Source: Candidatus Kaiserbacteria bacterium
Lineage (GTDB): Bacteria > Patescibacteriota > Minisyncoccia > Phycocordibacterales > UBA918
NCBI GenBank assembly: GCA_020428815.1
Contig: JAGQMC010000042.1
Span: forward strand, 1 to 57,858
Length of the DNA: 57,858 nucleotides
Direction: 5' to 3'
The notes under the pieces were generated by a model. The model was given only the letters and a program-made list of their open reading frames with translations, was not told the origin of the DNA and ran no database searches. Each line of letters begins with the position of its first letter. Within the stretch, counting starts at the first letter, position 1. Below, one piece after another: positions 5,256-46,842 of this stretch. The position numbers were made by a program, and so were the translations under genes.

Positions 5256-6911
<1,656 letters not shown>

Positions 6912-33034: not shown

Positions 33035-34828
33035 TTACATTTCATCAATGGTCGAAATCCCAAGTAGGGCCAGACCATTTTGGATTGTAACTGCGACTGA
33101 CTTAACAATAGCCAATTTATACATCTCTCTTTCGCTACCATCGAGAATTGATTCCTGTGCATACCAGCCATTGAAATCGCTACACAGTTGTAACAAATAC
33201 TGAGCCACGTGGTGAACAGACAAATCATCGATGGATTTCGCTACCACGTCTTCAAAGTAAAGCAGACTCCTGACTAACTCGGCCTCTTCTCCTAATTCTG
33301 AGGGCTGGTTAACGCCTTCTACGTCAAATCCAGCGGACTTCCGCAAGATTGATTGAGCTCTCACAAAAGTGTACATCACATATAAGCCGGAGTCTCCGTG
33401 CACATCTATCGAATGTTCAATATCAAAATCGATGTCCTGCATTTTATCCATCTTAATAAAACCAAACTTAACTGCCGCCAGCGCTAGCTTTTCAGCAATT
33501 TCTTCTCTGTTTTCTGGCTGATGACGCTCTTCGTCTTCAAATCGCTTAATTATGGTTTCTTTAACCTCATCTATCACATCATCTGCCAACACCACCGTAC
33601 CGTCCCGTGAAGACATCTTGGCTGAGCTGCCATCAGCACTCTTTAGTCCCACTTTTCCGTACGGCACATGAGTGAAGTCTTCTCGATTACCAATCCCTAA
33701 TTGCTCGCACACTGCAAATAACTGCTTCATGTGTAGAGACTGCTCTGGACCAACCACCCACACCAATTTATCAGCCTTGTAAGTAGTTTTTTTAAGATCG
33801 GTCAGAGCAATATCTTGAGTTAGATACAAAGAAGTACCGTCGTTTTTAAGCACCACTGTATCACTTAGTCCGTAGTCATCTTCCAGCTTAGTAATCACCG
33901 CACCGTCTTCCAGCTTCTTAAACACTCCTTTCTCTAAACCATCTAGAACGTAATCCTTTCCTTTTTGGTAATGTTCATGTTCATACCAAACTTTATCCCA
34001 GTGACTACCAAGACGCTGAAATACCCTTTCATTACCTTCATAAACATAACTGAGGATTTGTCGCCATAGCTCCCAGGTGACCTCGTCATTAGCTTCCCAA
34101 TCCACCACCATTTGCCGGACCGACTTTTCTACCCTTTCGTCATTTGAAAAATCTTGCTCCCCCAGCACATAGGTATCGGAGACAAAAACATCCGGTTTTA
34201 TATCTGATTCTAGAGGAGTAACCCACTCTTCCTTATGTAGAGCCCAATAGTGAATGTCAGTTGGTGTAGATTCAGTTTTTTTGCGATGAGCTAAGTAACC
34301 GTACATAACCTTAGCAATCGAAATCCCTCGGTCGTTATAAATACCGTCAGCTACCACCTCTGCTCCAGCCGCTTTCATCAGCCTGACAATACCCATACCA
34401 ATCAAATTGATGCGTAAGTGACCAATATGCATCGCTTTATTCGGGTTAGGCGAAGTATGTTCAATCACCCATTTTTCACTTTTATGACTCTCGTTATTAC
34501 CGAACTTGTTGCCAGCGGATAAAATACTTAGCACGTGTTTTGTTTTAGCCTCTGGCGTGAGGTAGAAATTCACAAAACCAGGTTGAACAGCCGTCACATC
34601 GGCCAAAAAGTCCAGTCTCTTTTCTTTCAGGAAATCAGCCAGATCAGAAGCTAAATCCTGAGGGTTCTTTTTTAACTCCTTAGCGTAGCGCATTGCCACA
34701 TTAGTTGAAAATTCACCAAACTTAACATCGACAGAGCGTTCAATCAGTACTACTGGTGAACTTACCCCGACATTTTTTAGCCAATCTGAAATTTGAAATT
34801 CTAATTGTTGTAAATACTCCCTAACCAT
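33035..34828 (-). CDS. argS: arginine--tRNA ligase
   Basis: 597 aa. SPNPNKAMHIGHLR (HIGH) motif, MSSRDG (KMSK-like) motif and the ArgS anticodon-binding C-terminus. Confidence 0.95.
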   Translation of the reverse strand: MVREYLQQLEFQISDWLKNVGVSSPVVLIERSVDVKFGEFSTNVAMRYAKELKKNPQDLASDLADFLKEKRLDFLADVTAVQPGFVNFYLTPEAKTKHVLSILSAGNKFGNNESHKSEKWVIEHTSPNPNKAMHIGHLRINLIGMGIVRLMKAAGAEVVADGIYNDRGISIAKVMYGYLAHRKKTESTPTDIHYWALHKEEWVTPLESDIKPDVFVSDTYVLGEQDFSNDERVEKSVRQMVVDWEANDEVTWELWRQILSYVYEGNERVFQRLGSHWDKVWYEHEHYQKGKDYVLDGLEKGVFKKLEDGAVITKLEDDYGLSDTVVLKNDGTSLYLTQDIALTDLKKTTYKADKLVWVVGPEQSLHMKQLFAVCEQLGIGNREDFTHVPYGKVGLKSADGSSAKMSSRDGTVVLADDVIDEVKETIIKRFEDEERHQPENREEIAEKLALAAVKFGFIKMDKMQDIDFDIEHSIDVHGDSGLYVMYTFVRAQSILRKSAGFDVEGVNQPSELGEEAELVRSLLYFEDVVAKSIDDLSVHHVAQYLLQLCSDFNGWYAQESILDGSEREMYKLAIVKSVAVTIQNGLALLGISTIDEM

Positions 34829-35118
34829 AAGACTAAATTAAGAAACTATTCAATATCTTCCGTAGCACTAAGAATGGCAAAATTTGCGGCAGAAATCTGA
34901 TAAATTTTAGCAGTTTTATGACCAAATTTTGACATTCAACTACCCGGGACAAGTCATTTTCGTTCTTTATATCAGACTTTGAACAGTTTCTAATACTACA
35001 TAACATAGCACAAAACCAAGAAACACCTAGCTATTAACGCCCACAGATTTGACTTTTTGGGAATATGTATTTAAATATTAACTAGCTCCACCCAGTTCAT
35101 CACACAAGGACACTTTAA

Positions 35119-35562
35119 ATGTACAGACGCCAGCAGTTAATGAACGAACTTGAACTAAGTCGTCAGTCGCAACCAGAAGACATCCCAGAACTTAAGTTAA
35201 TTCAGTGCCAAGTCTTGATTTATTCAAGTCACGCCAGACTACACTTAGCGATCTCCAATGGAATCGCCAACGTGTTTTCTGGGGTAAAAACTGTCAGTTT
35301 TTACCCAGGCAAACATGAAAATGAGTTTATCATTCGCCCTTACAAACTTTTAGCTGGTGATTTTAGTAGAAGATTCGTGAGACTAGAAAAATCTTCCCAG
35401 CCTGAATTTGCTTACGAATGCGTGTTGCCTCAAGAATTGGTTAACCGAAAGAAACCCATAGCTAACCTGAAAGATGACCCGAAGAAAACAGCTAGATTCA
35501 AATTTCGATTTGAAGCTAGTACCAGCGAAACTGGTTATGATATTTTAGTTACCATGGAGTAA
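35119..35562 (+). CDS. hypothetical protein
   Basis: 147-aa ORF. AAGGA lies 8 nt upstream of the ATG and a terminator follows directly downstream. Confidence 0.6.
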   Translation: MYRRQQLMNELELSRQSQPEDIPELKLIQCQVLIYSSHARLHLAISNGIANVFSGVKTVSFYPGKHENEFIIRPYKLLAGDFSRRFVRLEKSSQPEFAYECVLPQELVNRKKPIANLKDDPKKTARFKFRFEASTSETGYDILVTME

Positions 35563-35577
35563 ACTAACTCCATCTTT

Positions 35578-35606
35578 CCCACCCATCGAAGTTTCGGTGG
35601 GTTTTT
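35578..35606 (+). terminator. intrinsic terminator after CDS 35119..35562
   Basis: CCCACC(35578-35583)/GGTGGG(35596-35601) followed by TTTTT. Confidence 0.7.
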
Positions 35607-36240
35607 ATTTACCTATTGCTTTAATATTGCCAAAGGCCGATTGCCAACACTTTTCTATCTGCCAGCCGGAATCTTCCAATAATTGCTCAAACTCTGCTTG
35701 ACTGTACAAACATACTGACTCAGTTATACCAAACAACTCTTGAGTAAAATCTTGCAGCTTTCCAAATCTATCTTCGACTACGTTTTCTTTAGCTGGGTAG
35801 TTGTTCCCAATTTCAGAATCAATCCCTGTCGTTGATAGATATAGCTTGTTCTTTGTTATCTGCTTTAAAAAACGCAGCAATAACAAGGCCTCAGAATAGC
35901 GCAAATAGTGCAAAGTACGTTGACAAATCACAAAGTCAAACTGACGCTCAGCCAACAATTTAGGCAGGTCTCTCAAATCCCCCTGTATAAACTCTATATT
36001 ATGATTAAGAAACTGTTGACTAAAGTCATACTTATCGAGTGCTGTCACTCGAGCACCAACCGCAGCCATCCTTACTGCCTGTCCGCCAGCTCCACACCCT
36101 AAATCAAGCACGGATACCTCACCATAGTCCTTCAGCTCCCCTAATATAGCCTTATCCAAATCATCAGCTCGATTAACACCCACGTCCATCCCGTGCCCAC
36201 CAAAACTCTTATATTCGTGTTTTTTACTTGCATTTGGCAT
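35605..36240 (-). CDS. class I SAM-dependent methyltransferase
   Basis: VLDLGCGAGGQA motif I. I trimmed the start to Met61 of the track ORF (MPNASKK). The upstream 60 codons overlap ppk2 and its terminator and look non-protein-like. Confidence 0.75.
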   Translation of the reverse strand: MPNASKKHEYKSFGGHGMDVGVNRADDLDKAILGELKDYGEVSVLDLGCGAGGQAVRMAAVGARVTALDKYDFSQQFLNHNIEFIQGDLRDLPKLLAERQFDFVICQRTLHYLRYSEALLLLRFLKQITKNKLYLSTTGIDSEIGNNYPAKENVVEDRFGKLQDFTQELFGITESVCLYSQAEFEQLLEDSGWQIEKCWQSAFGNIKAIGK

Positions 36241-36254
36241 GAGCAGAGTATAAC

Positions 36255-36287
36255 AAAGAAAAAAACCGGAACAGCTTGTGCTCCGGT
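36255..36287 (-). terminator. intrinsic terminator after ppk2
   Basis: ACCGGA(36265-36270)/TCCGGT(36282-36287). On the minus strand it is followed by TTTTTTT. Confidence 0.8.
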
Positions 36288-36304
36288 CTATAAATGAGTG
36301 GCCG

Positions 36305-37255
36305 TTACTTCTTCGGCCGCCGACTCGGTGGAATAGTACCAGTGAGTATCTGATGTTGTACTCCAATAACATCACGACTAGAACCAACAATGAAACGGTC
36401 TGGATGTGTAACGACCTCAAAGTTTTTCTCAGGATATGGCAGAAGATTCAAAAAATGCATCATCATAGCCAATCTAGCTCGTTTCTTGTCGTTTGATTTA
36501 ATAACCGTCCAAGGGGCATCAGCTGTATCTGTATTAAAGAACATCAGTTCCTTGGCTTCAGTATATTCATCCCACTTATCCATCGAGGCCTTATCGACTG
36601 GTGACAACTTCCATTGTTTTAAAGGATCATTTGCTCTCGCTTCAAACCGTCTATGCTGTTCATCTTTTGTCACCGAAAACCAATACTTGAACAGGATTAT
36701 GCCATCATTAACCCACATTCGTTCCAGATCAGGACACTGTCTCATGAACTCCAGATATTGATTTGGGGTACAGAACCCCATCACCCTCTCCACTCCGGCT
36801 CGGTTGTACCAGGAACGGTCAAAAATGGTCATTTCGCCGACGTCCGGAAAGTGCTTGATGTAACGCTGGAAATACCACTGCCCCTGCTCTTCGACATTAG
36901 GTTTCTCAAGCGCCACTACTCTGGCACCACGAGGATTCAGCTTTTCGGTCAAACGTTTGATAACACCTCCCTTACCTGCCGCATCACGACCTTCACACAG
37001 AATAATAATGCGCTTTTTCTTATCTTTTACCCAAGCTTGGACCTTAAGAAGCTCTATTTGCAAAAGCCTTTTTTGCTCCTCATACTCTGCGGTAGATATT
37101 TTATCCAGATAAGGGTATTTGCCCGACTCAAAATAGTGCAAAAAATCCTCAGGATTATTCACGTCAATTTCATCGAGGTCAGATTGCGCTCTTCGACTAA
37201 GCTTACCCTCAACTTCGACGTCACCTGATGGTGTATGAACATCTCTTTTTGTCAT
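36305..37255 (-). CDS. ppk2: polyphosphate kinase 2 family (polyphosphate:nucleotide phosphotransferase)
   Basis: Walker A GRDAAGKGG and PPK2 core FDRSWYNR. Start set at the ATG at 37255, which is preceded by AAGGAG. Confidence 0.9.
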   Translation of the reverse strand: MTKRDVHTPSGDVEVEGKLSRRAQSDLDEIDVNNPEDFLHYFESGKYPYLDKISTAEYEEQKRLLQIELLKVQAWVKDKKKRIIILCEGRDAAGKGGVIKRLTEKLNPRGARVVALEKPNVEEQGQWYFQRYIKHFPDVGEMTIFDRSWYNRAGVERVMGFCTPNQYLEFMRQCPDLERMWVNDGIILFKYWFSVTKDEQHRRFEARANDPLKQWKLSPVDKASMDKWDEYTEAKELMFFNTDTADAPWTVIKSNDKKRARLAMMMHFLNLLPYPEKNFEVVTHPDRFIVGSSRDVIGVQHQILTGTIPPSRRPKK

Positions 37256-37347
37256 CGTCTTCTCCTTGTAATGAACAAACAAAGCCCCAACAGCGGCGCT
37301 TACAGCCGGCCTGGATTATTCCATTCAAAGATAATAAAGTCAACGCA

Positions 37348-37761
37348 CTAATGATTTTTTGGGTTAAACATGTTAGCTAAATCAGTCACGGTAGAAAAAA
37401 CTTCTATCTCAGGCAGATCTGTCTTGTTAATGAACCTTATCGCTTGGCACTCATTTGATGGTGTGAAATCAAGACTGACTAACTCAACCTCAAATAATAC
37501 ATTTACGCACCACCCTTCTGACCTGGTCATTTTAGCAGTGATGAAGTAACACGGATTATCTGCCATCCGTTTTACTTCAAGACCCATTTCTTCCTTTATT
37601 TCACGCTTCATTTCATCGGCTACTGACTGACCAAAGTCCAGACCTCCACCCGGCAACTCCCAGCGACCATTATCCTCCTGACAAACTAAAAATTTATCCT
37701 TAGTTTCGTTCAGCACTAGCGCTTTGACACTCACTCGATAAAAACAATCTGGAATGTTCAT
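37348..37761 (-). CDS. NUDIX hydrolase
   Basis: Nudix box GGGLDFGQSVADEMKREIKEEMGLEV (REUxEExGU satisfied). The ATG at 37761 overlaps the stop of the upstream gene as TAATG. Confidence 0.85.
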   Translation of the reverse strand: MNIPDCFYRVSVKALVLNETKDKFLVCQEDNGRWELPGGGLDFGQSVADEMKREIKEEMGLEVKRMADNPCYFITAKMTRSEGWCVNVLFEVELVSLDFTPSNECQAIRFINKTDLPEIEVFSTVTDLANMFNPKNH

Positions 37762-37940
37762 TATTTTTTCCAATCTTTAATTACCAACTCTTTACCCCGA
37801 AGTTCAATCGTTACCTTTTGCCCACGTTGCCATCTTAGTTTACGAATCAACTCAATCGGCAGTGTCATAGCCACACTCCGACCACTACCTGACTTTGATA
37901 ATTTGCGAGTAAACCTATCTTCTAATTTATTTCTTGCCAT
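37761..37940 (-). CDS. AbrB/MazE/SpoVT-type DNA-binding protein (antitoxin-like), 59 aa
   Basis: SVAMTLPIELIRKLRWQRGQKVTIELRGKELVIKD matches the swapped-hairpin AbrB pattern. Start trimmed to MARNK, because the track ORF extension runs through the upstream palindrome. Confidence 0.65.
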   Translation of the reverse strand: MARNKLEDRFTRKLSKSGSGRSVAMTLPIELIRKLRWQRGQKVTIELRGKELVIKDWKK

Positions 37941-37956
37941 ATCTAGTAGCATACCA

Positions 37957-38002
37957 TTGCGCAGAGCTTGCTCCGAGCATGCGCAGAGCAAGCTCTGCGC
38001 AA
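37957..38002. promoter_or_regulatory. perfect 16-bp inverted repeat (TTGCGCAGAGCTTGCT / AGCAAGCTCTGCGCAA), 14-nt spacer; candidate operator
   Basis: Arms at 37957-37972 and 37987-38002. GC-rich in an AT-rich divergent intergenic region, 17 nt upstream of the AbrB-like start. Confidence 0.65.
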
Positions 38003-38069
38003 ACCCACACTCCTGATGATAGATTGGGGTATGCTATAGTAAATTTCATAAAATAAATACGAACCATCT

Positions 38070-38444
38070 ATGACAATGTATCAAGGAAATTGGAAGTGTA
38101 GCGCCTGTGGCGGAACCATCACTGAACTACCTTTTCAACCTAGAAGCGAGTCTGGTCTAACTTGTCGTACTTGTTGGAGTCAGAAAAACCAACCAGTAAC
38201 CGCTAACTCTCCGACCGAAGTACCTCCTTACGATATTCCAGAAGAAGCTGGCTTGGCCAGCGAACCAATGGCTGACGATGGATTTGGAGCCGATGCTATA
38301 CCAGTAGCACCTGGCGAGAAGCCTAGGTTTAGTGGTGAATGGGAGTGTGCGGGCTGTGGTACTACCATCACTTCGCTTCCATTCCAACCCCGAGATACTA
38401 GTAATTTAAAATGTCTAGACTGTTTTAAAGCTAGTAAACAGTGA
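38070..38444 (+). CDS. tandem zinc-ribbon protein (two CxxC-x19-20-CxxC modules)
   Basis: WKCSACGGTITELPFQPRSESGLTCRTCW and WECAGCGTTITSLPFQPRDTSNLKCLDCF are separated by an acidic linker. Confidence 0.7.
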   Translation: MTMYQGNWKCSACGGTITELPFQPRSESGLTCRTCWSQKNQPVTANSPTEVPPYDIPEEAGLASEPMADDGFGADAIPVAPGEKPRFSGEWECAGCGTTITSLPFQPRDTSNLKCLDCFKASKQ

Positions 38445-38451
38445 GTCAAAA

Positions 38452-38484
38452 ATGGTCCGGAAGCTTTGCTTCCGGCCCATTTTT
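38452..38484. terminator. bidirectional intrinsic terminator between convergent genes
   Basis: CCGGAAGC(38457-38464)/GCTTCCGG(38468-38475), flanked by A-run and T-run. Confidence 0.85.
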
Positions 38485-38495
38485 ACAAAACCTAC

Positions 38496-39248
38496 CTAAT
38501 CGACAAAATCCAAATATTTGACCGCTACTCCCGATTCGGTCATTTCCCCCTTTACGTATACCTTAGCCGCCTCTGTAAATCGCTCATTTAAACACGGTAG
38601 TGACTCACCAGTTTCGTTGTAACAAGCAGATGATTCGTCGAAGAATAGTGGTACAGCATGACCAGGCTCCCCATCTTGTACAAATATCAGGTGCCAATTT
38701 TCACTATTTAACAATGATGATAAGCTGTCTTTAAGTAAATATCCCTCATAAGAAAAACTAAATTCTCTTTCCGGTAACACATCACCCATTGAGCACTCAA
38801 TTTTATCCAACACCCATTCACCCGCTTTGGCTACTACAGTAACAATCGCCATACCAGCTTCATCTGAGCCTCGAGGCAACACCATCACCTGTCCCTCGGT
38901 ATCATTACTAAAAATTGGTTTAGCCCCAATCCGTGGCGGCACCACTGACTGACACAACACCTTGTCCACAGCAAAATTTTCTTCAGTTTGTCCGGTCGCG
39001 AGCTCAGTTTTTAAATTATCACTTAACAGAGGTGAATTGTGTAAATTAGCAGCGTAAGGATCAGTAGTTGTTGATAGTATCGCCTTAAGCCATGAATTAT
39101 AAAAATCCAGCACAATGTCAATTGGTTCTTCTTCTGGAACAGTTTGTTCATTTACCACTTCAACCTTATCGCCAGATAAAGACCGTACAACCACCACCAG
39201 TATTATTAGCCCTAATGCTAATAACAGAATTTTAAACAAATTTTTCAT
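38496..39248 (-). CDS. hypothetical membrane-anchored secreted protein
   Basis: 250 aa with an N-terminal TM/signal helix. Confidence 0.65.
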   Translation of the reverse strand: MKNLFKILLLALGLIILVVVVRSLSGDKVEVVNEQTVPEEEPIDIVLDFYNSWLKAILSTTTDPYAANLHNSPLLSDNLKTELATGQTEENFAVDKVLCQSVVPPRIGAKPIFSNDTEGQVMVLPRGSDEAGMAIVTVVAKAGEWVLDKIECSMGDVLPEREFSFSYEGYLLKDSLSSLLNSENWHLIFVQDGEPGHAVPLFFDESSACYNETGESLPCLNERFTEAAKVYVKGEMTESGVAVKYLDFVD

Positions 39249-39276
39249 ATTTTTATCCGCTTATTGTACTACTTTT

Positions 39277-39498
39277 TTATAAAAGACCCTCAAAACTAGC
39301 TGTGTAGGAATTTATAAAAGCAGGTATAGCAAAAATGAGCCCAAGGGCGGGTAATACTACCACCGCCAGACTAACCCACATCATGACCAAAAAATATTTA
39401 CGGGTTTTCTCAACAGAATCATAAATAGCATCAATTTTCTCTTCCAATTGCTCAATTTTACTAGTTGTTTCAGTTTCCATTTCTCTAGTATACCGCAC
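39277..39498 (-). CDS. small membrane protein
   Basis: 73 aa, helical N-terminus followed by a TM hairpin. Confidence 0.45.
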   Translation of the reverse strand: MRYTREMETETTSKIEQLEEKIDAIYDSVEKTRKYFLVMMWVSLAVVVLPALGLIFAIPAFINSYTASFEGLL

Positions 39499-39519
39499 TA
39501 TATATAAATCAAATACTTC

Positions 39520-41937
39520 TTATTTGTGGCTAGGTGAAGTTGGTTGAGGATGAACATTTTGCTTATACCAGTCGATAACTTTGTAAGTTAGAACTTTTAT
39601 CTGATCATTGATCAAAAACCATACCGTTGCATACACCCAGACTAAAGCAATTGTAGACAATGAAATAGCTGGCATTAAAATGCCGAAGTAAGCGATGACG
39701 CTACCAATTAGACGAGATGAGAAAGCTGGCAAGAAAAATTTGAGTGATGGGAAAGGTCTTTCCCAGAAGTGACCACGTCCGGCACGAGTCAAATAAAGAG
39801 TTGAGTGACCTGCCACATCAAGTTTTACAAAAAAGATTGTTTGAATTATGGCTATTTCCCAACCAGACACATCAAGATAGTACAACAAAGCAAAGGAGGA
39901 AATGAGCCCAGTCACTCCCAGCACCGAAGCCACAATTAGAGTTTCATTGATATGCCAGCGAACAGGTTTGTCGCTGAGTCGAACGTTGTCGTACGCAATA
40001 GCCAAGACGGGAATATCATTCAATAAAGCTAACATTATGACCATACCGGCCGTTAGTGGCGAAAAGTCAAAAATTAGTACCGTTAAGGCAATAAAAAATA
40101 CAATTCTGATTGTCTCAGAAATACGGAAAGTAGCATAAGACTGCATTCGAGCAAAGGTCTGACGAGCTAAATCAATTGCTTCTTTAATTACTGACAAACC
40201 ATTGTCTAGTAAGACCAAATCGGAAGCCGAACGAGCAGCTGGTGTAGATCCTGAAACTGCAATTCCTACATCAGCTTTTTTCAAGGCTGGCGCATCGTTT
40301 ACCCCATCACCAGTCATGGCCACAATCTGACCGTCAGACTGAAAAGAACTAACAATGTTAAATTTATCGGCTGGAACTACTTCCGCGAATATGTCAGTTG
40401 TTTGTATTAAATTTTTATTATCTTTATCATCCGGCGTTTCATCTACTTTTTCTAACTCAGACCGACTGACTACCACCTGACCAATATTGAGCAATTTGCC
40501 TATATACCGGGCAATGGCTGTATTATCTCCAGTTAGCATCTTCACCACCACCCCTCGTTTCTTTAATTCTTTGATCACTTCACGAGAATCATCTCGTGGC
40601 GGGTCCATCAGCGGGATTAAACCTACTGGATAATTACCGCGCGGCCATTTAATAGCGACTGCTAGAGATCTGAAACCATCAACAGCCAACGCTTCCGTGT
40701 CAGCCATTAATTGGGCACTGTCTGTCTCTGCTGAAAGAGACTGGGCAATAACTTGAGGCGCCCCCATAATAACCCGCACCTCTTCACCAGCATGATCAAA
40801 GACAGCTTCGGTTGTTTTTTTGACTGGATCAAAAGAATAGAACTCTTTAACTGTAAACTTATTAGCCGCTTCTTGGAAACCGTTATCCAAGACATGCTTG
40901 TGGACGGCTCGTTCAATCGATGAACGCTCACCGTCTTCTAGTGCCAGATAAGCGAATACGAATAATTCTTCTTCTGTATGCTGACCATAAACATTGGCAC
41001 CAGAGACTGCTATTTCATTTTTAGTGAGCGTTCCTGTCTTATCAACACACAAATAACTCACCCCTGCCAGTTCTTCAATTACCTGAAAATTTGAAACGAT
41101 TGTATGTCGACGGGCCAACAAATTAGCGCCAATTGCCATAGTCACTGACAATACCGCTGGTAAAGCAACTGGAATTGAAGCAATAGCTAAAACCAAAGCA
41201 AAACGAGCTACGTCAATAATAGGATCACCATTAATTAATAGTAATGATGAGGTAAAAATGACCAAGAGACTGGCGACAATGATTAAAAATTTACCAATCC
41301 TTAAAATTGCCCGCTGGAAATGACTTTCTTCCATTACTTCGGCTTGACCAACTAGTTCAATATTCTTACCCATCGCAGTAGCTACTCCAATTGTGATCAC
41401 CTTGGCATACACTGTACCCTTTTGAATCATTGACCCTGAATAAAGCTGGTCTTTTGCCGTAGCTGTGATTGGTAATGATTCACCGGTAATAGCTGATTGA
41501 TCAACCGTCACCTCATCATGACTGATTATCTCAACATCAGCCGGGACGACCTCCCCAATAGCTAACTTAACCACATCAGCTGGCACTAATTCACGTGCTG
41601 GTATTTCTTGAAGTTTATTATCGCGAATCACCCACGCGGTAGGTGCTAATGTTTTCTTTAAAATTGACAAAGCCTTATGGGCTTTTTGTTCCTGTGACAA
41701 ATCAACTGCCAGATTCACAATTAACAGCACCGCAATGACCACCGCATCTTCCCAACGCTGAACAAAGATCGACAAACCTAACGCGACTTCAATCATCAGT
41801 GGAATTGGGCTGATGATTTTCTTAACAAATCTCCAGTATAGATTCTCTTCAGTCTCAATAATTTCATTGAAGCCTTCAGTTTTTCTGATTTGCTCCACTT
41901 CTGCAGTTGTGAGACCAGATGGTATACGATGCTCCAT
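39520..41937 (-). CDS. P-type ATPase, plasma-membrane H+-ATPase-like (type III)
   Basis: 805 aa. TGES, CVDKTGTLT and MTGDGVNDAPALKKADVGIAV motifs. Confidence 0.9.
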   Translation of the reverse strand: MEHRIPSGLTTAEVEQIRKTEGFNEIIETEENLYWRFVKKIISPIPLMIEVALGLSIFVQRWEDAVVIAVLLIVNLAVDLSQEQKAHKALSILKKTLAPTAWVIRDNKLQEIPARELVPADVVKLAIGEVVPADVEIISHDEVTVDQSAITGESLPITATAKDQLYSGSMIQKGTVYAKVITIGVATAMGKNIELVGQAEVMEESHFQRAILRIGKFLIIVASLLVIFTSSLLLINGDPIIDVARFALVLAIASIPVALPAVLSVTMAIGANLLARRHTIVSNFQVIEELAGVSYLCVDKTGTLTKNEIAVSGANVYGQHTEEELFVFAYLALEDGERSSIERAVHKHVLDNGFQEAANKFTVKEFYSFDPVKKTTEAVFDHAGEEVRVIMGAPQVIAQSLSAETDSAQLMADTEALAVDGFRSLAVAIKWPRGNYPVGLIPLMDPPRDDSREVIKELKKRGVVVKMLTGDNTAIARYIGKLLNIGQVVVSRSELEKVDETPDDKDNKNLIQTTDIFAEVVPADKFNIVSSFQSDGQIVAMTGDGVNDAPALKKADVGIAVSGSTPAARSASDLVLLDNGLSVIKEAIDLARQTFARMQSYATFRISETIRIVFFIALTVLIFDFSPLTAGMVIMLALLNDIPVLAIAYDNVRLSDKPVRWHINETLIVASVLGVTGLISSFALLYYLDVSGWEIAIIQTIFFVKLDVAGHSTLYLTRAGRGHFWERPFPSLKFFLPAFSSRLIGSVIAYFGILMPAISLSTIALVWVYATVWFLINDQIKVLTYKVIDWYKQNVHPQPTSPSHK

Positions 41938-42112
41938 GTCGATATTATGACATAGAGCATCTCTGTATAAATAAATAATATACTCATACTACCTCTAATA
42001 AGACAGGATTTTAAATTGTGAAGTGTTGCTTGCAATTATGTTCTTAATAAGAAAAATATTTGGTATACTAGCTAAACGACAGATCTACCCACTCCTCTCT
42101 TCTTGTTAGGCG

Positions 42113-43162
42113 TTGATCACGTCAAAACTAATGACAACAGTTGTTTATTCTTGGCTGAAGAGCATCTCATATAAAACAGTAATTCTTTCCCTGTTATTTT
42201 TTTCTATTGGTGTACTAACTGGCAAGGTCTTACCATCACCAGAAGCCACCCAAGATGTGACCACTAAACATATGGGGCGTATTAAATACACCAATCCACT
42301 AGTAGACCACCCTGGAATAAACGAATCGAACAAAGAGTATTTGACTAAAAAAAAGCAAATTGAAAAAACTATTCAAGAATATCTAAAAACTAAATCGGCA
42401 CAAACCATATCGGTTTACTACCAAGACTTAGAAACCAATAGATGGTTTAGCATTAACGAAACTGAGCGCTATACACCAGCCAGTCTAATGAAAGTCACTC
42501 TGCTACTCGCCTATTTAAAATTATCAGAAGTAAGACCCGCCCTACTTCAAGAAACAATAGTAAATGAAGGTCAGTACACAGATTTAGCAAACGTACCGCC
42601 AGCTCAAAGACTGGCCGTAAATAAAACCTATACAGTTCAGGAACTTTTATTCAATATGATTGTCCACTCCAATAACGAAGCCCAACATCTGCTCTCGGAT
42701 TATCTCGATGCTCGAGTTACCCCAGAAACCAGATCCAGATTAGTCTATGAAACCATGACTCTCATTCCTGCCTCGTACGAAATTAGCGACCAATACAATT
42801 TAACTGTTGTAGATTATGCTGGTATCTTCCGTATTTTGTATAACGCTACTTATCTATCAGAAAGTTTATCAGAACAAGCTTTAGCCCTACTGGCAGAATC
42901 CTCTTTTGATAGTGGTATCGTAAATGGTCTACCTGAAAATGTTATAACCGCCAACAAATTCGGTTTCAAAGAAAATAAACAGTCCCCCGACAGTATGCAA
43001 TTTCATGATTGCGGTATTGTTTATGCAGAACCAACACCATACATACTTTGTGTGATGACCAAAACCGACGACCCTCTGAAAGCCCAAAAAATTGTCTCGG
43101 AAATATCAAATCAGGTCTATAACCTTGTCTTATCGCCTGAGCAAAAAGAAACCTCATTTTGA
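42113..43162 (+). CDS. class A beta-lactamase-related serine hydrolase (PBP/carboxypeptidase-like), membrane-anchored
   Basis: SxxK (SLMK), SxN (SNN) and KTG-like (KFG) motifs in the canonical order. TTG start in the track; an alternative ATG lies at 42131. Confidence 0.7.
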   Translation: MITSKLMTTVVYSWLKSISYKTVILSLLFFSIGVLTGKVLPSPEATQDVTTKHMGRIKYTNPLVDHPGINESNKEYLTKKKQIEKTIQEYLKTKSAQTISVYYQDLETNRWFSINETERYTPASLMKVTLLLAYLKLSEVRPALLQETIVNEGQYTDLANVPPAQRLAVNKTYTVQELLFNMIVHSNNEAQHLLSDYLDARVTPETRSRLVYETMTLIPASYEISDQYNLTVVDYAGIFRILYNATYLSESLSEQALALLAESSFDSGIVNGLPENVITANKFGFKENKQSPDSMQFHDCGIVYAEPTPYILCVMTKTDDPLKAQKIVSEISNQVYNLVLSPEQKETSF

Positions 43163-43199
43163 ATTTGTACTGGCTGTCTGAAACGAAGTTAGAACTCAA

Positions 43200-43655
43200 T
43201 TACAATGAAAGGCTATTTTCTTCGTAAAACTCTGAGTAAGACTTACCCTGCAACATCGACTCCAGTGCTTCCTTCATAAATGGCACAAATTCGTCCAGTC
43301 GTTCTCCAACTGGAATCCACATAACTTCGCTACATTTGTGCGGTTCAGTATTTACTGGCTCTTGGTCGCAGCATTCAATTTTAAAATAGTAATGAGTTCT
43401 ATCGTGCCGACCGTCTACATTTCGATTGTATTGAATATGCACAAACTCAATATCTTCTGCTGACACATCAACACCAACCTCTTCTCTCGCTTCTCTGACC
43501 GCAGCTTCACGTGGAGTCTCATCTGGGTCAATATGTCCTGCTGGCATATTTAAACAATCATCACAAAATCCGGTATTTTGTCGTCGCCCAACAAACCACT
43601 TGCTCTCACATTCAAGCAACAAACATACCGCGGGTATAATTACATGTTTTTCCAT
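43200..43655 (-). CDS. NUDIX hydrolase
   Basis: Canonical Nudix box GHIDPDETPREAAVREAREEVGV. Confidence 0.85.
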   Translation of the reverse strand: MEKHVIIPAVCLLLECESKWFVGRRQNTGFCDDCLNMPAGHIDPDETPREAAVREAREEVGVDVSAEDIEFVHIQYNRNVDGRHDRTHYYFKIECCDQEPVNTEPHKCSEVMWIPVGERLDEFVPFMKEALESMLQGKSYSEFYEENSLSL

Positions 43656-43730
43656 TCAATGAGTATATCAAACCAGAGATTCGAACTGAATCCGCGTTGA
43701 TAAATAAATCTAATTAGCGAGCTGACTGTC

Positions 43731-43749
43731 TGGGACGATGTTTGAACTT
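43731..43749. repeat. direct repeat copy A (TGGGACGATGTTTGAACTT)
   Basis: 18/19 identical to 45285-45303. Lies between the foreign cassette and the NUDIX gene. Confidence 0.6.
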
Positions 43750-43960
43750 TACTTAATAACAGAAAGATAAAGGCCTCATAAATATGCGGGACCTAAAAGT
43801 CCACCAGATATTGTCACCAACTACTATTGTTTCTTTTCTGGACCCATGCACACTACACTTAGTAAAACCGTGGTCGTACTAACTCTGAGATATACATAAG
43901 ATCAAAATGTGCTGCCCAAGCCGTAACCTAGACATGACACACATTTCAATTTGATTATAC

Positions 43961-43997
43961 AAAAAAAATCCCTCGGGCGCGCGAAGCGTCCGAGGGA
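43961..43997 (-). terminator. strong intrinsic terminator after the high-GC gene
   Basis: TCCCTCGG(43969-43976)/CCGAGGGA(43990-43997). On the minus strand it is followed by T8. Confidence 0.9.
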
Positions 43998-44022
43998 CAA
44001 AGGTTCAAAGGGCTGAAAGAGC

Positions 44023-44649
44023 TCAGGCCTGAGTGGCAGTTGCCGAGAATGCCCGATCGCCAGGATCGCCAGCACGCCACCGATAGCCACCGGGGCGATA
44101 GGCGCTGCAGCCCCACCACCGGTAGTCGGCGCTCCAGTCGACGCTGACAGCGAAGACTTCACCGTTCACCTTCACGTAGAAGATGTTGGCGTAGCCATTG
44201 TTGAGGAGCGTGCCTTCCTTGCCACCCCACTGACCCTCGATGAGAGTCGCGAGGTGAGCGAGAAACGTATCGACGTCCTCGAAGACGTAGCCTTCGGGGA
44301 GTTCGCTACCGATCTCGGCGTCGTTGGCGGATTGAGCCAAGTCAGCGTAGCCGACGACCATTTCATTCACCGACACCTTCTTCTTCGATAACCCAGAAAG
44401 GATGTAGTCGTTGAAGTTGTTCGACGTCCACAAACCTTCACGGGTCTGGAAGAAGTCGTGCGGATTGACGGTGTTGCTGGCGACGCCGAGCGAGGTCAGG
44501 CTGGTGAGGCGAGTTTCTGCCGGAACGAGTCCAGACAGAAGTTTCTTGAGGGCCTTGGGATTGTCAATCCAGCCCTGCATCACCTCCGGAGACATGTTCG
44601 GTGTATTTTCGAACATGCGTGCCCAAAATTTCATCTCTTGCTTGTTCAT
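44023..44649 (-). CDS. hypothetical protein, compositionally foreign (high-GC)
   Basis: 208-aa ORF with AAGGAG 7 nt upstream of the ATG. 40/60 G+C in 44041-44100 versus 20/60 in 43741-43800. Long ORFs in several frames are typical of high-GC DNA. Confidence 0.75.
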   Translation of the reverse strand: MNKQEMKFWARMFENTPNMSPEVMQGWIDNPKALKKLLSGLVPAETRLTSLTSLGVASNTVNPHDFFQTREGLWTSNNFNDYILSGLSKKKVSVNEMVVGYADLAQSANDAEIGSELPEGYVFEDVDTFLAHLATLIEGQWGGKEGTLLNNGYANIFYVKVNGEVFAVSVDWSADYRWWGCSAYRPGGYRWRAGDPGDRAFSATATQA

Positions 44650-44704
44650 GACGGTTTCTCCTTACGGTTTTCGTCATTCGCTAGCGGGCTCCCAAAATCT
44701 TAGG

Positions 44705-44756
44705 TTTACCATAGCTTAAAATCAACAAACTTTTACTGACTTGAAGCTATGGTAAA
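44705..44756. promoter_or_regulatory. perfect 13-bp inverted repeat (TTTACCATAGCTT / AAGCTATGGTAAA), 26-nt spacer, in the leader of the high-GC gene
   Basis: Arms at 44705-44717 and 44744-44756, downstream of the predicted promoter. Confidence 0.55.
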
Positions 44757-44776
44757 TATGAAAAGAACTTATATAC

Positions 44777-44805
44777 ATAATAACACGATTTAAGTTAAAA
44801 GTCAA
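44777..44805 (-). promoter_or_regulatory. candidate promoter (TTGACT-17 nt-TATTAT) for the high-GC gene
   Basis: On the minus strand, -35 lies at 44800-44805 and -10 at 44777-44782. Confidence 0.5.
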
Positions 44806-44846
44806 TGCTAGCTGTTTGGGGCCACGTTAGAACTTTTTTGATAATA

Positions 44847-44886
44847 TAAAAAGTCTCGTTGCTAAGACTTCTCCCAGCAACGAGAC
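44847..44886 (-). terminator. intrinsic terminator after the small membrane protein gene
   Basis: GTCTCGTTGCT(44853-44863)/AGCAACGAGAC(44876-44886). On the minus strand it is followed by TTTTT. Confidence 0.85.
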
Positions 44887-44890
44887 GTGA

Positions 44891-45196
44891 TTACTTGGGA
44901 ATAACCCAAGAAAGTATATACTCGCGGAATGTCGGATCGGCAGCCATTTCACCCATCACCGCACCAATCAGGTAACACAGAGACAACATGATGAAAGTTG
45001 TTGCTACCGGATGAGAAACTGGCTGCCCGGTAGTTGCAGCACTGATGATATCGAAAATATTCAGATAACTCAGTACGCTCAGGCTGACGATGGCAATAGC
45101 GACCACCGCCATCAAACCTGAAAGGAATCCCGGAGCATTCATTTGTACGACATACCTCAAGAACAGCAGTGCGAACGCTTTAAACAAATTAGCCAT
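44891..45196 (-). CDS. small 3-TM membrane protein (101 aa)
   Basis: Start trimmed to MANLFKAF, which is preceded by GAGGAAG. Hydrophobic throughout, with visibly higher G+C than neighbouring host genes. Confidence 0.65.
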   Translation of the reverse strand: MANLFKAFALLFLRYVVQMNAPGFLSGLMAVVAIAIVSLSVLSYLNIFDIISAATTGQPVSHPVATTFIMLSLCYLIGAVMGEMAADPTFREYILSWVIPK

Positions 45197-45284
45197 GCTT
45201 CCATCTTCCTCGCTATGTTTTGGTTGAACAAACTTACTAACGTAAAATAGCACATTAAGTGACATTTGTCATGTCTTGCTGGTT

Positions 45285-45303
45285 TGGGACGATGTTGGAA
45301 CTT
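45285..45303. repeat. direct repeat copy B (TGGGACGATGTTGGAACTT)
   Basis: 18/19 identical to 43731-43749. Abuts and overlaps the stop codon of the HIT gene. Confidence 0.6.
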
Positions 45304-45721
45304 ATCTCAACAATTCAATTAACGTCATAACCTCTTCTTGAGGTAAAGGTTTAAATATTTCTCGGTCATGAATATGGCTTTTTAGATATAGTTCATCCTC
45401 GTACTCACGTGGTTGTAAGTGGATATGCACATGATCAACTTTGAGGTCGTTTTCTTGAATAAAAGGTCGATTGTGTTGTTTCAGGTCGCACCCAGAAGCT
45501 ACGCTTTTCAAAATTTTTTCTTGATATTCAATTGCTGTATCAAATAACTCTTGTTTTTCTTCTACAGTGAGTTCACTCAAGTTTAGTACATGTCGTTTGG
45601 GAATGATGAGCAAATGACCGGGCATTAGTCGCGGGTTGCTAAATATTACCGTACAAGTTTCTCTAACCTCTAAGACTCGCTGTTTTTCTTTTTTCTCTAA
45701 ATCACAAAATCTGCAGTTCAT
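45302..45721 (-). CDS. HIT (histidine triad) family nucleotide hydrolase/transferase
   Basis: 139 aa, N-terminal CxxC and the HVHIHL histidine triad. Confidence 0.85.
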   Translation of the reverse strand: MNCRFCDLEKKEKQRVLEVRETCTVIFSNPRLMPGHLLIIPKRHVLNLSELTVEEKQELFDTAIEYQEKILKSVASGCDLKQHNRPFIQENDLKVDHVHIHLQPREYEDELYLKSHIHDREIFKPLPQEEVMTLIELLR

Positions 45722-46033
45722 GAAAAGAGTATATCAAAGTTCTAAAGTCCGCTGGAATGTATGCCCGACAGATATGCGAAGCATGCAGCTTCAGTACAAG
45801 TTGTCGATATTTTTACTCCTTTCAATCGCAAAATACCTGACAAACCCTCTGAAACAATCTACCATATGTTTCAGCCCCAGTTTTTGGTGCTAGGTAAAAC
45901 AGCCTGGGTGAGGAGTGACTAAATGTCACTTTGCAAGACCTTTTGAGAAATTTTGAGTTTATGAGAAATTTCCAAAAGATGTACAGATTCTGTAAGAAGA
46001 CTGTTTTACGGACGTCTTGTTTTGTGTTCAAAG

Positions 46034-46104
46034 CTGCCAGACTAGGATTCGAACCTAGGTGACGAGTGCCAGAAACTCGCATCCTACCACTAGATGATCT
46101 GGCA
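46034..46104 (-). tRNA. tRNA-Gln (anticodon CUG)
   Basis: Acceptor TGCCAGA/TCTGGCA (U1-A72), D stem ATCT/GGAT, anticodon stem CGAGT/ACTCG with loop TTCTGGC, T arm CTAGG-TTCGAAT-CCTAG, discriminator G. Confidence 0.92.
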
Positions 46105-46221
46105 GCTTTGAAAGCAAAACGCTTATCCACTAGACGTGTCCGGCAAGGTAATCGGTGCGATTGCGCTAGCTTTCGCACCAGTCGCACTATACTGCCAGAA
46201 TCTATGAAAGATTCAAGTGAG

Positions 46222-46842
46222 TTAATTCTGTAAATTAACAGACCAAGCACACTGACCTGAGTTAGTTTCTGGATTATAAGTCACTGCTTTTATTTGTGTA
46301 TTTGGCATAGTTAATAAATTGAAGAAAGTCTTTGTAGCTTGAAATACATTCAACTTCTTTGTCTGACACATGTGTGCTACGAAAAAATTAATAAAGACTG
46401 AATGTGACACGATAACTAATTTAGCATCGGGCGGTAAGCTGGCCACTTTTTCTTTTACTATCTCAATTCTTTTAAGTAAGTCTGCGTAAGACTCACCATC
46501 AGTAGACTCTTTGCCCTCTCTTCCGAGAAACCATTTAAAATAAAAAATAAATGAGCCGATACTAAAGTGATAATTCCCATACAATTTGTCTGGTCGTTTG
46601 AGCTCGTTTAAGTAAGAAAATGTATCAGGCACTAAGTCACACTCCTTCCCAATTACTTTAGCGGTATCTAGTGCTCGTACCAGAGAACTGGTCATTAGAT
46701 GAGTTGGTTTTAAAGCCTTAATCAGCAAAGCGGCCTTTCGCACTTCCTCTTCTCCTTTAAAGGTCAGTGGGCTATGTTCAGCTTGGTGACGCCGAGCAAC
46801 ATTACCATTCGTTTCGCCGTGTCTAATAAAGTAAATTTCCAT
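46222..46842 (-). CDS. histidine phosphatase (phosphoglycerate mutase-like) family protein
   Basis: N-terminal IRHGETNGN catalytic motif. 206 aa. Confidence 0.8.
   Translation of the reverse strand: MEIYFIRHGETNGNVARRHQAEHSPLTFKGEEEVRKAALLIKALKPTHLMTSSLVRALDTAKVIGKECDLVPDTFSYLNELKRPDKLYGNYHFSIGSFIFYFKWFLGREGKESTDGESYADLLKRIEIVKEKVASLPPDAKLVIVSHSVFINFFVAHMCQTKKLNVFQATKTFFNLLTMPNTQIKAVTYNPETNSGQCAWSVNLQN

Follow-up and report, generated by a model that had tools for sequence, protein, structure and literature searches.

A 57,858-nucleotide contig from Candidatus Kaiserbacteria bacterium (JAGQMC010000042.1), referred to here as the window, carries next to a tRNA-Gln gene four small genes on one strand, each followed by a copy of the same motif of about 33 nucleotides (nt). 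We characterized this locus following an earlier note that had described a foreign segment of 1.55 kb at positions 43731-45303, inserted between genes for a HIT-family hydrolase and a NUDIX hydrolase and bracketed by a direct repeat. Two results are solid. One gene of the segment is, judged by its homologues, an orphan target of a diversity-generating retroelement (DGR) and belongs to a large family without annotation, and the motif that holds the repeat punctuates arrays of single genes downstream of tRNA-Gln in bacteria of the candidate phyla radiation (CPR). The features of the locus, in the order in which they follow each other from the tRNA onward, are:

46033-46104, minus strand: tRNA-Gln (CTG), found by ARAGORN and by the Rfam tRNA family at 55 bits; upstream end and anchor of the array.
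45302-45721, minus strand: gene for a HIT-family hydrolase, cassette 1 (Pfam HIT, 1.7e-9), native in composition with a GC content at third codon positions (GC3) of 0.31.
45273-45303, minus strand: motif copy D (AAGTTCCAACATCGTCCCAAACCAGCAAGAC), 33.4 bits with a position weight matrix (PWM); holds the second copy of the repeat.
44891-45196, minus strand: gene for a hydrophobic protein of 101 amino acids (aa) with about three transmembrane (3-TM) segments, cassette 2.
45272-45244 and 44886-44853, minus strand: promoter-like site and terminator of the 3-TM gene.
44805-44835, minus strand: motif copy C (AAGTTCTAACGTGGCCCCAAACAGCTAGCAT), 38.8 bits.
43783-44805, minus strand: putatively captured DGR target module, consisting of a promoter (44805-44777), a hairpin in the 5' untranslated region, the variable-protein gene, a terminator and a spacer of about 240 nt.
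44705-44756, minus strand: hairpin with 25-nt arms in the 5' leader of the variable-protein gene, an inverted repeat.
44023-44649, minus strand: gene for the DGR variable protein, 208 aa, GC content 0.571, recognized by its homologues and by pairs of variable region (VR) and template repeat (TR).
44038-44158, minus strand: VR, closing in a conserved stretch (ATCGGGCATTCTCGGCAACT) that resembles an initiation of mutagenic homing (IMH) site; compared with the TR of locus L013.
43750-43782, minus strand: remnant of 33 nt that separates the DGR breakpoint from motif B, seen on reading the sequence.
43719-43749, minus strand: motif copy B (AAGTTCAAACATCGTCCCAGACAGTCAGCTC), 44.0 bits; holds the first copy of the repeat.
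43200-43655, minus strand: gene for a NUDIX hydrolase, cassette 4 (Pfam NUDIX, 2.1e-18), native in composition.
43167-43197, minus strand: motif copy A (GAGTTCTAACTTCGTTTCAGACAGCCAGTAC), degenerate, 25.0 bits; the last of the array, with a convergent gene after it.

The repeat, TGGGACGATGTT[T/G]GAACTT, occurs on the plus strand at 43731-43749 and 45285-45303, in the places and the direct orientation first reported for it. Two matches were obtained in 0/100 shuffles, and the window holds no third match at three or fewer mismatches. The stop codon of the HIT gene (45302-45304) overlaps the second copy, as had been noticed, and with it motif D. The description of two inner genes (101 and 208 aa), each with a terminator, is borne out by the open reading frames (ORFs) and by terminator-like hairpins 3' of both, and the reported absence of an integrase or transposase is confirmed: no such domain was detected in the segment or, Phage_integrase included, among 20 window ORFs of 250-420 aa. 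The 101-aa protein has hydrophobic stretches at about residues 19-54 and 62-86 and no match in Pfam, NCBIfam or PHROG. The foreign character ascribed to the whole segment proved to be a property of one gene. Within the segment, only the 208-aa gene is strongly foreign in composition, with a GC content of 0.571 compared to 0.411 for the window and a GC3 of 0.73 compared to 0.31-0.35 for its neighbours, whereas the 3-TM gene has a GC content of 0.464 and a GC3 of 0.51.

We found that the repeat extends to a motif of about 33 nt, (A)AAGTTCYAACATCGTCCCAGAC-N-GCCAGCAA (27-33 nt over the copies). A repeat search and a PWM scan located four direct copies in 2.1 kb, in consecutive intergenic regions, and the motif is confined to these four sites in the window: in the window scan the four copies score 35-39, the next best site scores 11 and the other 55 kb contain nothing comparable. 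By comparison with the bit scores given with the individual copies above, 300 kb of shuffled sequence reached no more than -3.3. The resulting order on the minus strand is tRNA-Gln, HIT, D, 3-TM gene, C, DGR module, B, NUDIX, A. Motif C sits after the terminator of the 3-TM gene, and motif B lies 274 nt past the 208-aa gene. Motif A begins 3 nt past the NUDIX stop codon and faces the convergent gene, so that no gene follows it on the same strand; a strain variant of this copy, in locus L015, scores 32.1.

These four copies bear directly on the view that a single cassette with the 3-TM and 208-aa genes was acquired between HIT and NUDIX, with the repeats as an att pair or target-site duplication. 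Copies B and D are the most alike pair in the window, and the 208-aa gene is of foreign composition, both as this proposal would have it. With copy C between the two genes and copy A past NUDIX, however, none of the genes is without bracketing copies, not even HIT and NUDIX, which look native. The foreign homology block outlined below comprises the 208-aa module only, with edges near C and 35 nt from B rather than at B and D, and leaves the 3-TM gene outside. The motif moreover belongs to a widespread family, and the likeness of B to D reflects their closeness to the family consensus, not a recent duplication. We thus regard a single two-gene insertion as very improbable.

We next consider the GC-rich gene, which by sequence comparison is shown to encode a DGR variable (target) protein orphaned from its retroelement. 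The 208-aa protein has no match in Pfam, NCBIfam, PHROGs or PDB sequences. CPR metagenomes encode 82 homologues, each about 200 aa long, and a profile search returned 3445 representative clusters of a family that is unannotated. Family members are conserved up to the residues EVFAV and are hypervariable thereafter, over the last ~35 residues only. In loci L001 and L104, a reverse transcriptase (RT) of the RVT_1 family follows the homologue, and a repeat of ~110 nt occurs both at the gene's 3' end and in the spacer preceding the RT. Locus L013 is 99.9% identical to window positions 44766-43783 and continues with a template repeat and with bAvd on the opposite strand. The full layout of variable protein, TR, inverted Avd and RT is seen in L244, and RVT_1 and/or bAvd lie beside homologues in L001, L104, L013, L243 and L244.

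Adenine-directed variation is evident from the VR/TR pairs. The window VR (44158-44038) differs from the L013 TR at 15 TR adenines and at 3 other positions over 111 nt (Fisher p = 3e-8); the corresponding counts of adenine-site and other mismatches are 13 and 6 in L001, 19 and 3 in L104, and 11 and 1 for the VR of L015. The TR carries AAC/AAT codons exactly at the family-variable positions after EVFAV. The VR ends in …GGGCATTCTCGGCAACT and the TR in …GGGCATTCTC-GCAACT, a difference of one G (GGGCATTCTC(G)GCAACT) found in 4/4 pairs, as expected of IMH compared to IMH*. The gene is GC-rich elsewhere too (0.56-0.62 in host loci of 0.43-0.53). A 9-nt duplication in the VR (window region 44048-44056) adds the residues DPG; it is shared by the window and L008-L013 and absent from L016, L018 and L020-L023, which are otherwise nearly identical contigs. 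The protein P0001 (205 aa) from an NCBI metagenome-assembled genome corresponds to the short form lacking DPG. Another protein, P0203 (926 aa), contains five tandem matches to the variable-protein profile, indicating that a multi-domain version of this DGR target family exists.

We compared the locus to DGRs described previously. A CPR-restricted DGR clade (clade 2) provides an example for remote or orphan targets, and every annotated VR region has been reported to adopt a C-type lectin (CLec) fold (Roux et al. 2021, PMC8144416). The genes analyzed here resemble DGR targets in their C-terminal VR paired with an adenine-rich TR, with AAC/AAT codons at the variable sites, in the VR end that looks like an IMH and is one base off the TR, and in the bAvd and RVT_1 genes beside homologues. 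As in remote-target systems, the target gene is able to sit apart from the RT. DGRs with multiple targets are known from Treponema and Legionella. The window differs in that no TR (blastn), RT (tblastn) or Avd was found in its 57.8 kb, the module being cut just before the TR. A further difference concerns the variable protein itself, which is small (~200 aa) and unannotated. Its AlphaFold2 model (pLDDT 92) matches no solved or viral structure, C-type lectins included: the best Foldseek match in the PDB has E = 0.09, TM-scores are below 0.25, none of the matches is a CLec variable protein, and a BFVD search with the model gave no match. None of 69 family members matches Pfam or PDB sequences, and a search of viral contigs with the 208-aa protein returned nothing. 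A C-type lectin or Ig-like fold was not recognized for this family, and the protein may still be a very divergent CLec.

The 5' leader of the target gene contains a hairpin with arms of ~25 nt in the window (44705-44756), in L001 (5895-5945), in L104 (5882-5933) and in L107 (5882-5932). The arms of L104 and L107 differ in sequence and yet pair (TTTACCATAGC…GCTATGGTAAA compared to GGTCACAGCC…GGCTGTGACC), which suggests a conserved RNA structure, or possibly an operator, specific to this target family.

The comparisons support horizontal mobility of the GC-rich gene, which would agree with the acquisition first proposed for it. By blastn, the window matches L001, from a genome of 48% GC, at 85% over ~1 kb (44771-43783), L104 at 77% (44512-43783) and L007 at 85% (44800-44029), the L007 protein being 80% identical. 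In L007, the homologue with its own promoter and leader (5555-6166) is located in a ribosomal operon, between rplE (L5) and rpsN (S14), with no RT within 6 kb; a second orphan copy lies upstream of fusA in L107. Locus L248, a syntenic relative of the window discussed below, lacks all four array genes. Homology to the three complete DGRs (L001, L013 and L104) breaks off at one shared position, 43783, which lies ~68 nt short of their TRs. The edges of the module are ~5 nt from motif C and ~35 nt from motif B, and the remnant in between (43750-43782; …TGTTATTAA GTAA) may be the last part of a gene that was displaced. The module was probably copied or cut from a complete DGR (variable protein, TR, inverted Avd, RT), with a break ~68 nt before the TR, and it would have landed right after motif C, displacing most of an earlier cassette. 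Rewriting of its VR would then depend entirely on a cognate TR, Avd and RT that are encoded at another place in the cell and act in trans; failing these, the VR would be a frozen variant. In L015, the gene has the same NUDIX linkage and a VR that differs at adenine sites, and the orphan locus has consequently carried different DGR-written variants. A search with Avd homologues for a cognate DGR on a longer contig gave relatives only, the exact Avd being found on contigs of at most 1.6 kb. The complete DGR of L001 is located between 42-nt direct repeats (5742-5783 and 8581-8622; 74% identity) that contain GGTTCGATTCC, similar to a tRNA 3' end, and adjoin a tRNA-Arg (8685-8757), which suggests that this whole DGR arrived on a tRNA-targeting element.

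A sharp GC change at the gene, and several short contigs that break in or near the module, could also be taken as signs of an assembly chimera or a contaminant, a caveat raised at the outset. Both junctions are however spanned at 99.6-100% identity by independent assemblies (L008-L012, L020, L021), which represent no fewer than six samples and four sources, and broken contigs are what one would expect of a VR or of a module found in two contexts. The population occurs in SRR15882951, in the WANG18-1 digester samples and in JGI 3300010350. An artifact of this kind is hardly tenable. Other contig ends recur at fixed positions as well: among contigs from independent assemblies, five begin at the 5' end of tRNA-Gln (46096-46106) and one at the stop codon of the 3-TM ORF (44893), and four break off at 45197, immediately ahead of the 3-TM start codon. 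These look like forks in the assembly graph, caused by alternative 3-TM ORFs and alternative sequences upstream of the tRNA in co-occurring strains.

We scanned metagenomes for the motif using the pattern AAGTTCNAACRTSGYCCCARAC, which matched at least 120 stretches. The figures for the family rest on the 80 loci listed and hold among these matches. Six of the 80 are chance matches inside one GC-rich coding gene, and 74 were kept. The flanks of the 74 loci are unrelated around the consensus A.AA-AAGTTCYAACATCGTCCCAGAC-N-GCCAGC-AA, in which the positions left free by the pattern (+24 to +29, GCCAGC) are 78-96% conserved. The loci come from groundwater, lake, sludge and digester metagenomes. Two to eight copies are present in 40/74 loci, with no opposite-strand copy in the PWM scan, and not one of the 152 copies in 72 non-redundant loci is inverted. 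Copies are spaced at a median of 600 nt (interquartile range 452-755, smallest 245 nt), and 58 of 80 intervals contain a single ORF when ORFs of 50 aa or more are counted (median 154 aa). Enclosed ORFs are co-oriented with the motif in 72/92 cases and the nearest upstream ORF in 64/82; in about half of these 64, the stop codon lies 0-12 nt before the motif. Among copies with enough flank, 17/143, including window copy C, are located downstream of a terminator hairpin and T-run. The genes next to the motif encode small accessory enzymes by Pfam (NUDIX, glyoxalase, GNAT, methyltransferases, HAD, His_Phos, APH), with NUDIX as the commonest family elsewhere (8/282 ORFs). Integrases and transposases are not found among the top 25 Pfam families of these 282 motif-near ORFs, where rare matches could be hidden. 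The motif search in IMG/VR viral contigs gave just four chance matches inside a GC-rich coding gene, of the same family as the six discarded metagenome loci, and BLAST of the motif against plasmids and phages gave nothing meaningful. A description of the motif was not found in the literature by sequence or keyword.

The motif recurs beside unrelated genes at no fewer than these 74 metagenome loci, and recurrence upstream of unrelated genes had been named in the earlier note as a finding that would speak against an insertion scar. Its alternative suggestion, a regulatory motif upstream of the next gene, comes nearer the mark, but it is the 3' end of the gene before it that the motif follows: the distance to downstream -10 boxes ranges from 31 to 86 nt, and window copy A has no downstream gene on its strand. 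This range also excludes a fixed-distance promoter element. We rejected further candidates. An attC-like palindrome is ruled out by the lack of an inverted partner (the reverse complement of the motif 5' box occurs within 200 nt downstream in 1/91 cases, the same rate as upstream) and of a consistent fold, and the latter equally rules out a small RNA with a conserved fold. CRISPR, with spacers of 25-75 nt, does not agree with intervals of at least 245 nt (median 600) that contain genes, and an extension by stop-codon readthrough is ruled out by the inconstant frame of the motif relative to the stop. For a dif or terminus site, the GC skew would have to switch; it is negative over the whole window, and the locus is consequently not a replication terminus. 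The inverted recombinase-binding arms of Xer/dif sites are likewise absent on reading the motif.

Two further sequence elements were seen near motif copies. In L120 (3199-3305), L169 (101-207), L167 (4550-4658) and L177 (4245-4351), homology runs ~75 nt past the motif at 75-78% identity and includes a shared hairpin-like stretch, …GAGAYMGACTGAG…, which has no Rfam match and may be a second conserved element. In the window, TTTGATATACTC is found 7-8 nt before the ATG of both NUDIX and HIT (43653-43672 and 45719-45738). It represents an extended -10 box right at the start codon, and the NUDIX and HIT mRNAs would thus be leaderless or nearly so. Extended -10 boxes close to the start codon also follow many motif copies at other loci.

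The arrays are consistently linked to one tRNA. ARAGORN detected 16 tRNAs in 73 motif loci, and 16/16 are tRNA-Gln on the motif strand. The first copy comes 0.4-3.3 kb downstream of the tRNA, the stretch separating the two is free of the motif, and the window is organized alike. In five loci, dnaX is found upstream of the tRNA, encoding proteins 36-72% identical to the window DnaX; about 30 contiguous motif positions are kept across these lineages. Proteins labelled Nomurabacteria or Paceibacteria share 78-87% identity with the window DnaX, and a genome collection queried with the latter yielded a best relative at 55% identity, with no synteny and no motif. In locus L248, DnaX is 85% identical, and the locus is collinear with the window on both sides, from DprA to His_Phos and from ArgRS to YceG. 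L248 has the tRNA-Gln, but neither the motif nor any of the four array genes. The interval from tRNA-Gln to argS spans 11.6 kb in the window (34721-46358) and an unrelated 4.0 kb in L248 (11519-15495), from which we conclude that the array occupies the tRNA-proximal end of a variable island. Besides the array, this island encodes in the window a beta-lactamase-like protein, a P-type ATPase, a MazE-like protein, a second NUDIX protein, PPK2 and a methyltransferase; in L248 it encodes RimK and a metallophosphatase.

This position invites the idea that the motif copies are attR-type remnants of the serial integration of small elements targeting tRNA-Gln, whose integrases were lost and whose decayed cargo would be the genes between the copies. 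The array abuts the 3' side of tRNA-Gln and has no motif before its first gene, every copy is direct, island content differs between syntenic relatives, and degenerate copies such as window A look like decaying sites. The motif also has a weak resemblance to the tRNA-Gln 3' end: its 3' half aligns with the last 16 nt at 11-12/16 positions, which is marginal (shuffle p 0.04-0.4), and many weaker copies begin with GGTTC, similar to a T-loop. The acceptor stems of the local tRNA-Gln genes vary, however (TCTGGCA, TCCGGCA, TCCCCCA, TCCGCGA), while the motif consensus remains constant, so the repeats cannot have been copied from the 3' end of the tRNA at their own locus. This variation, together with the marginal alignment, led us to discard a simple copy of the local tRNA end. 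The units, 58/80 with a single ORF at a median spacing of 600 nt, are more regular than one would expect from random decay of integrase-bearing elements, integrase remnants are not seen in the top Pfam families near the motif, and viral contigs, plasmids and phages contain no copy. Serial integration of this kind appears unlikely to us. Prochlorococcus tycheposons, tRNA-linked islands reportedly built by tandem accretion (bioRxiv 10.1101/2020.12.28.424599), are a known counterpart in layout: a variable island adjoins the 3' side of a tRNA gene, its cargo blocks are separated by direct repeats, and its content varies between core-syntenic relatives. The present arrays differ in that their repeats do not duplicate the local tRNA 3' end, the units are single genes and recombinase genes were not seen.

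A different possibility is that the motif acts at the level of RNA or transcription, as a punctuation signal for 3'-end processing, stability or termination, perhaps mimicking a tRNA 3' end, rather than in recombination. The arrays would then share a signal near tRNA-Gln, and the DGR module would have arrived by unrelated illegitimate recombination. The motif is found strictly on the sense strand of the upstream gene, with the tight stop-codon spacing given above, and the conservation of ~30 contiguous positions at DnaX identities of 36-72% would be consistent with a conserved machine, of RNA or protein, that recognizes the motif. The tRNA-like 3' half, the GGTTC starts of weaker copies and the failure to find a recombinase in window ORFs or top neighbouring families would also agree with such a role. 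We detected no consistent secondary structure at the motif, however, and Rfam gave tRNAs only (E 0.1-1 or better), both for positions 42900-46300 of the window and for 63 kb from 13 array loci. The 17/143 copies past a terminator and T-run are maybe not transcribed with the upstream gene, and the tRNA likeness is marginal. Punctuation alone also leaves unexplained that genes are reassorted on either side of the motif and that a close relative is free of it. We consider this role possible, if somewhat doubtful.

Evidence for such reassortment comes from pairs of otherwise unrelated loci. Homology between them ends at motif position +31/+32 in L143/L193 (396 nt, 84%) and L173/L182 (550 nt, 67%), and it starts at -6 to +9 in L170/L194, L179/L181, L161/L180, L126/L194, L120/L169, L137/L170 and others. 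We infer that the motif is a junction at which single-gene units are gained, lost and swapped. This role is favoured by the reassortment on either side of the motif, by the integron-like units and by the tRNA-linked variable island, and it is supported by the start of the DGR module ~5 nt from motif C and by a cargo typical of accessory enzymes. We therefore lean, by a modest degree, towards a motif-punctuated cassette array at a tRNA-Gln-linked variable island, with a captured DGR target module. The 1.55-kb segment would represent two adjoining units of a four-unit array that begins at tRNA-Gln, and the motif a non-palindromic element of ~33 nt placed after each small gene of same-strand arrays in many CPR genomes of the Paceibacteria type. 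Exchange could be catalyzed by a site-specific recombinase working in trans, or DNA that has been taken up could recombine through RecA with the 33 nt serving as portable homology, an option that we include because DprA is encoded in the window. In L179 (407-514 and 1539-1646), a gene for a 321-aa protein is inserted in the 5' end of mreB, with an 83-nt duplication of the mreB start (78% identity); the related L181 lacks the insertion.

Several observations weigh against the cassette array. The missing recombinase, already noted for the 20 window ORFs and the top Pfam families of the 282 motif-near ORFs, is one, and the motif has no inverted arms, symmetry or attC-like partner. Presence or absence of a cassette with the junction inside the motif was not seen among strain-level contigs of this species, and exact-protein look-ups for the 208-aa, NUDIX and HIT proteins returned contigs all collinear with the window, except for L013 with its DGR context. 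L013, which carries DGR parts, is just 1.6 kb long and comes from another sample. The right edge of the DGR module lies 35 nt from B, and its copies in other genomes have no flanking motif, so that the DGR insertion need not have used the motif. HIT and NUDIX are native in composition. Finally, homology that stops at a conserved element can arise without recombination there.

A conceptual comparison can be made with integrons, and in particular with CALINs, clusters of attC sites without an integrase. In both cases the genes are arrayed on one strand, mostly with one small, co-oriented ORF per unit, and their accessory functions are mixed; a site lies at or just past the stop codon of each ORF, units measure ~0.3-1 kb, no site precedes the first unit and no integrase lies inside the units. 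An integron attC is an imperfect palindrome of 55-140 nt that is conserved in structure, whereas our motif is linear, ~33 nt long and highly conserved in sequence between distant lineages. IntI was not found, the platform is a tRNA-Gln gene, and many units have their own promoters and terminators. In T4-type phages, PeSL elements form mobile regulatory cassettes, in which a conserved promoter and stem-loop between small ORFs mediates modular shuffling. The motif resembles them as a short conserved intergenic element between small accessory ORFs that could double as a homology patch; it differs in being neither promoter nor stem-loop and in occurring in cellular CPR genomes at one tRNA-linked locus. 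With these comparisons in mind, we propose tentatively, as a possibility to which we give less than even weight, that the motif is the recombination site of an integron-like, tRNA-Gln-anchored gene-cassette capture system of CPR bacteria, for which we found no prior description.

Bacteria of the CPR (Patescibacteria) have tiny genomes with few recognised mobile elements, and their exchange of accessory genes is poorly understood. A punctuation motif at a tRNA-Gln island would provide a searchable handle on the flexible gene pool of these organisms. The large DGR target family, whose modelled 208-aa member has no matched fold, bears on the question which scaffolds tolerate DGR hypermutation. 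A target gene cut from its TR and RT, with a VR that differs at adenine sites in another population, represents a natural test case for trans-acting DGR diversification. Should the motif be a recombination site, it would define a new kind of cassette platform. A capture system of this type would rely on a short, linear site shared across lineages instead of attC hairpins, with a recombinase or a transformation/RecA route encoded off the array. Ultra-small symbiotic bacteria would then own a dedicated locus for swapping single accessory genes, which in the present case includes a target of DGR hypermutation.

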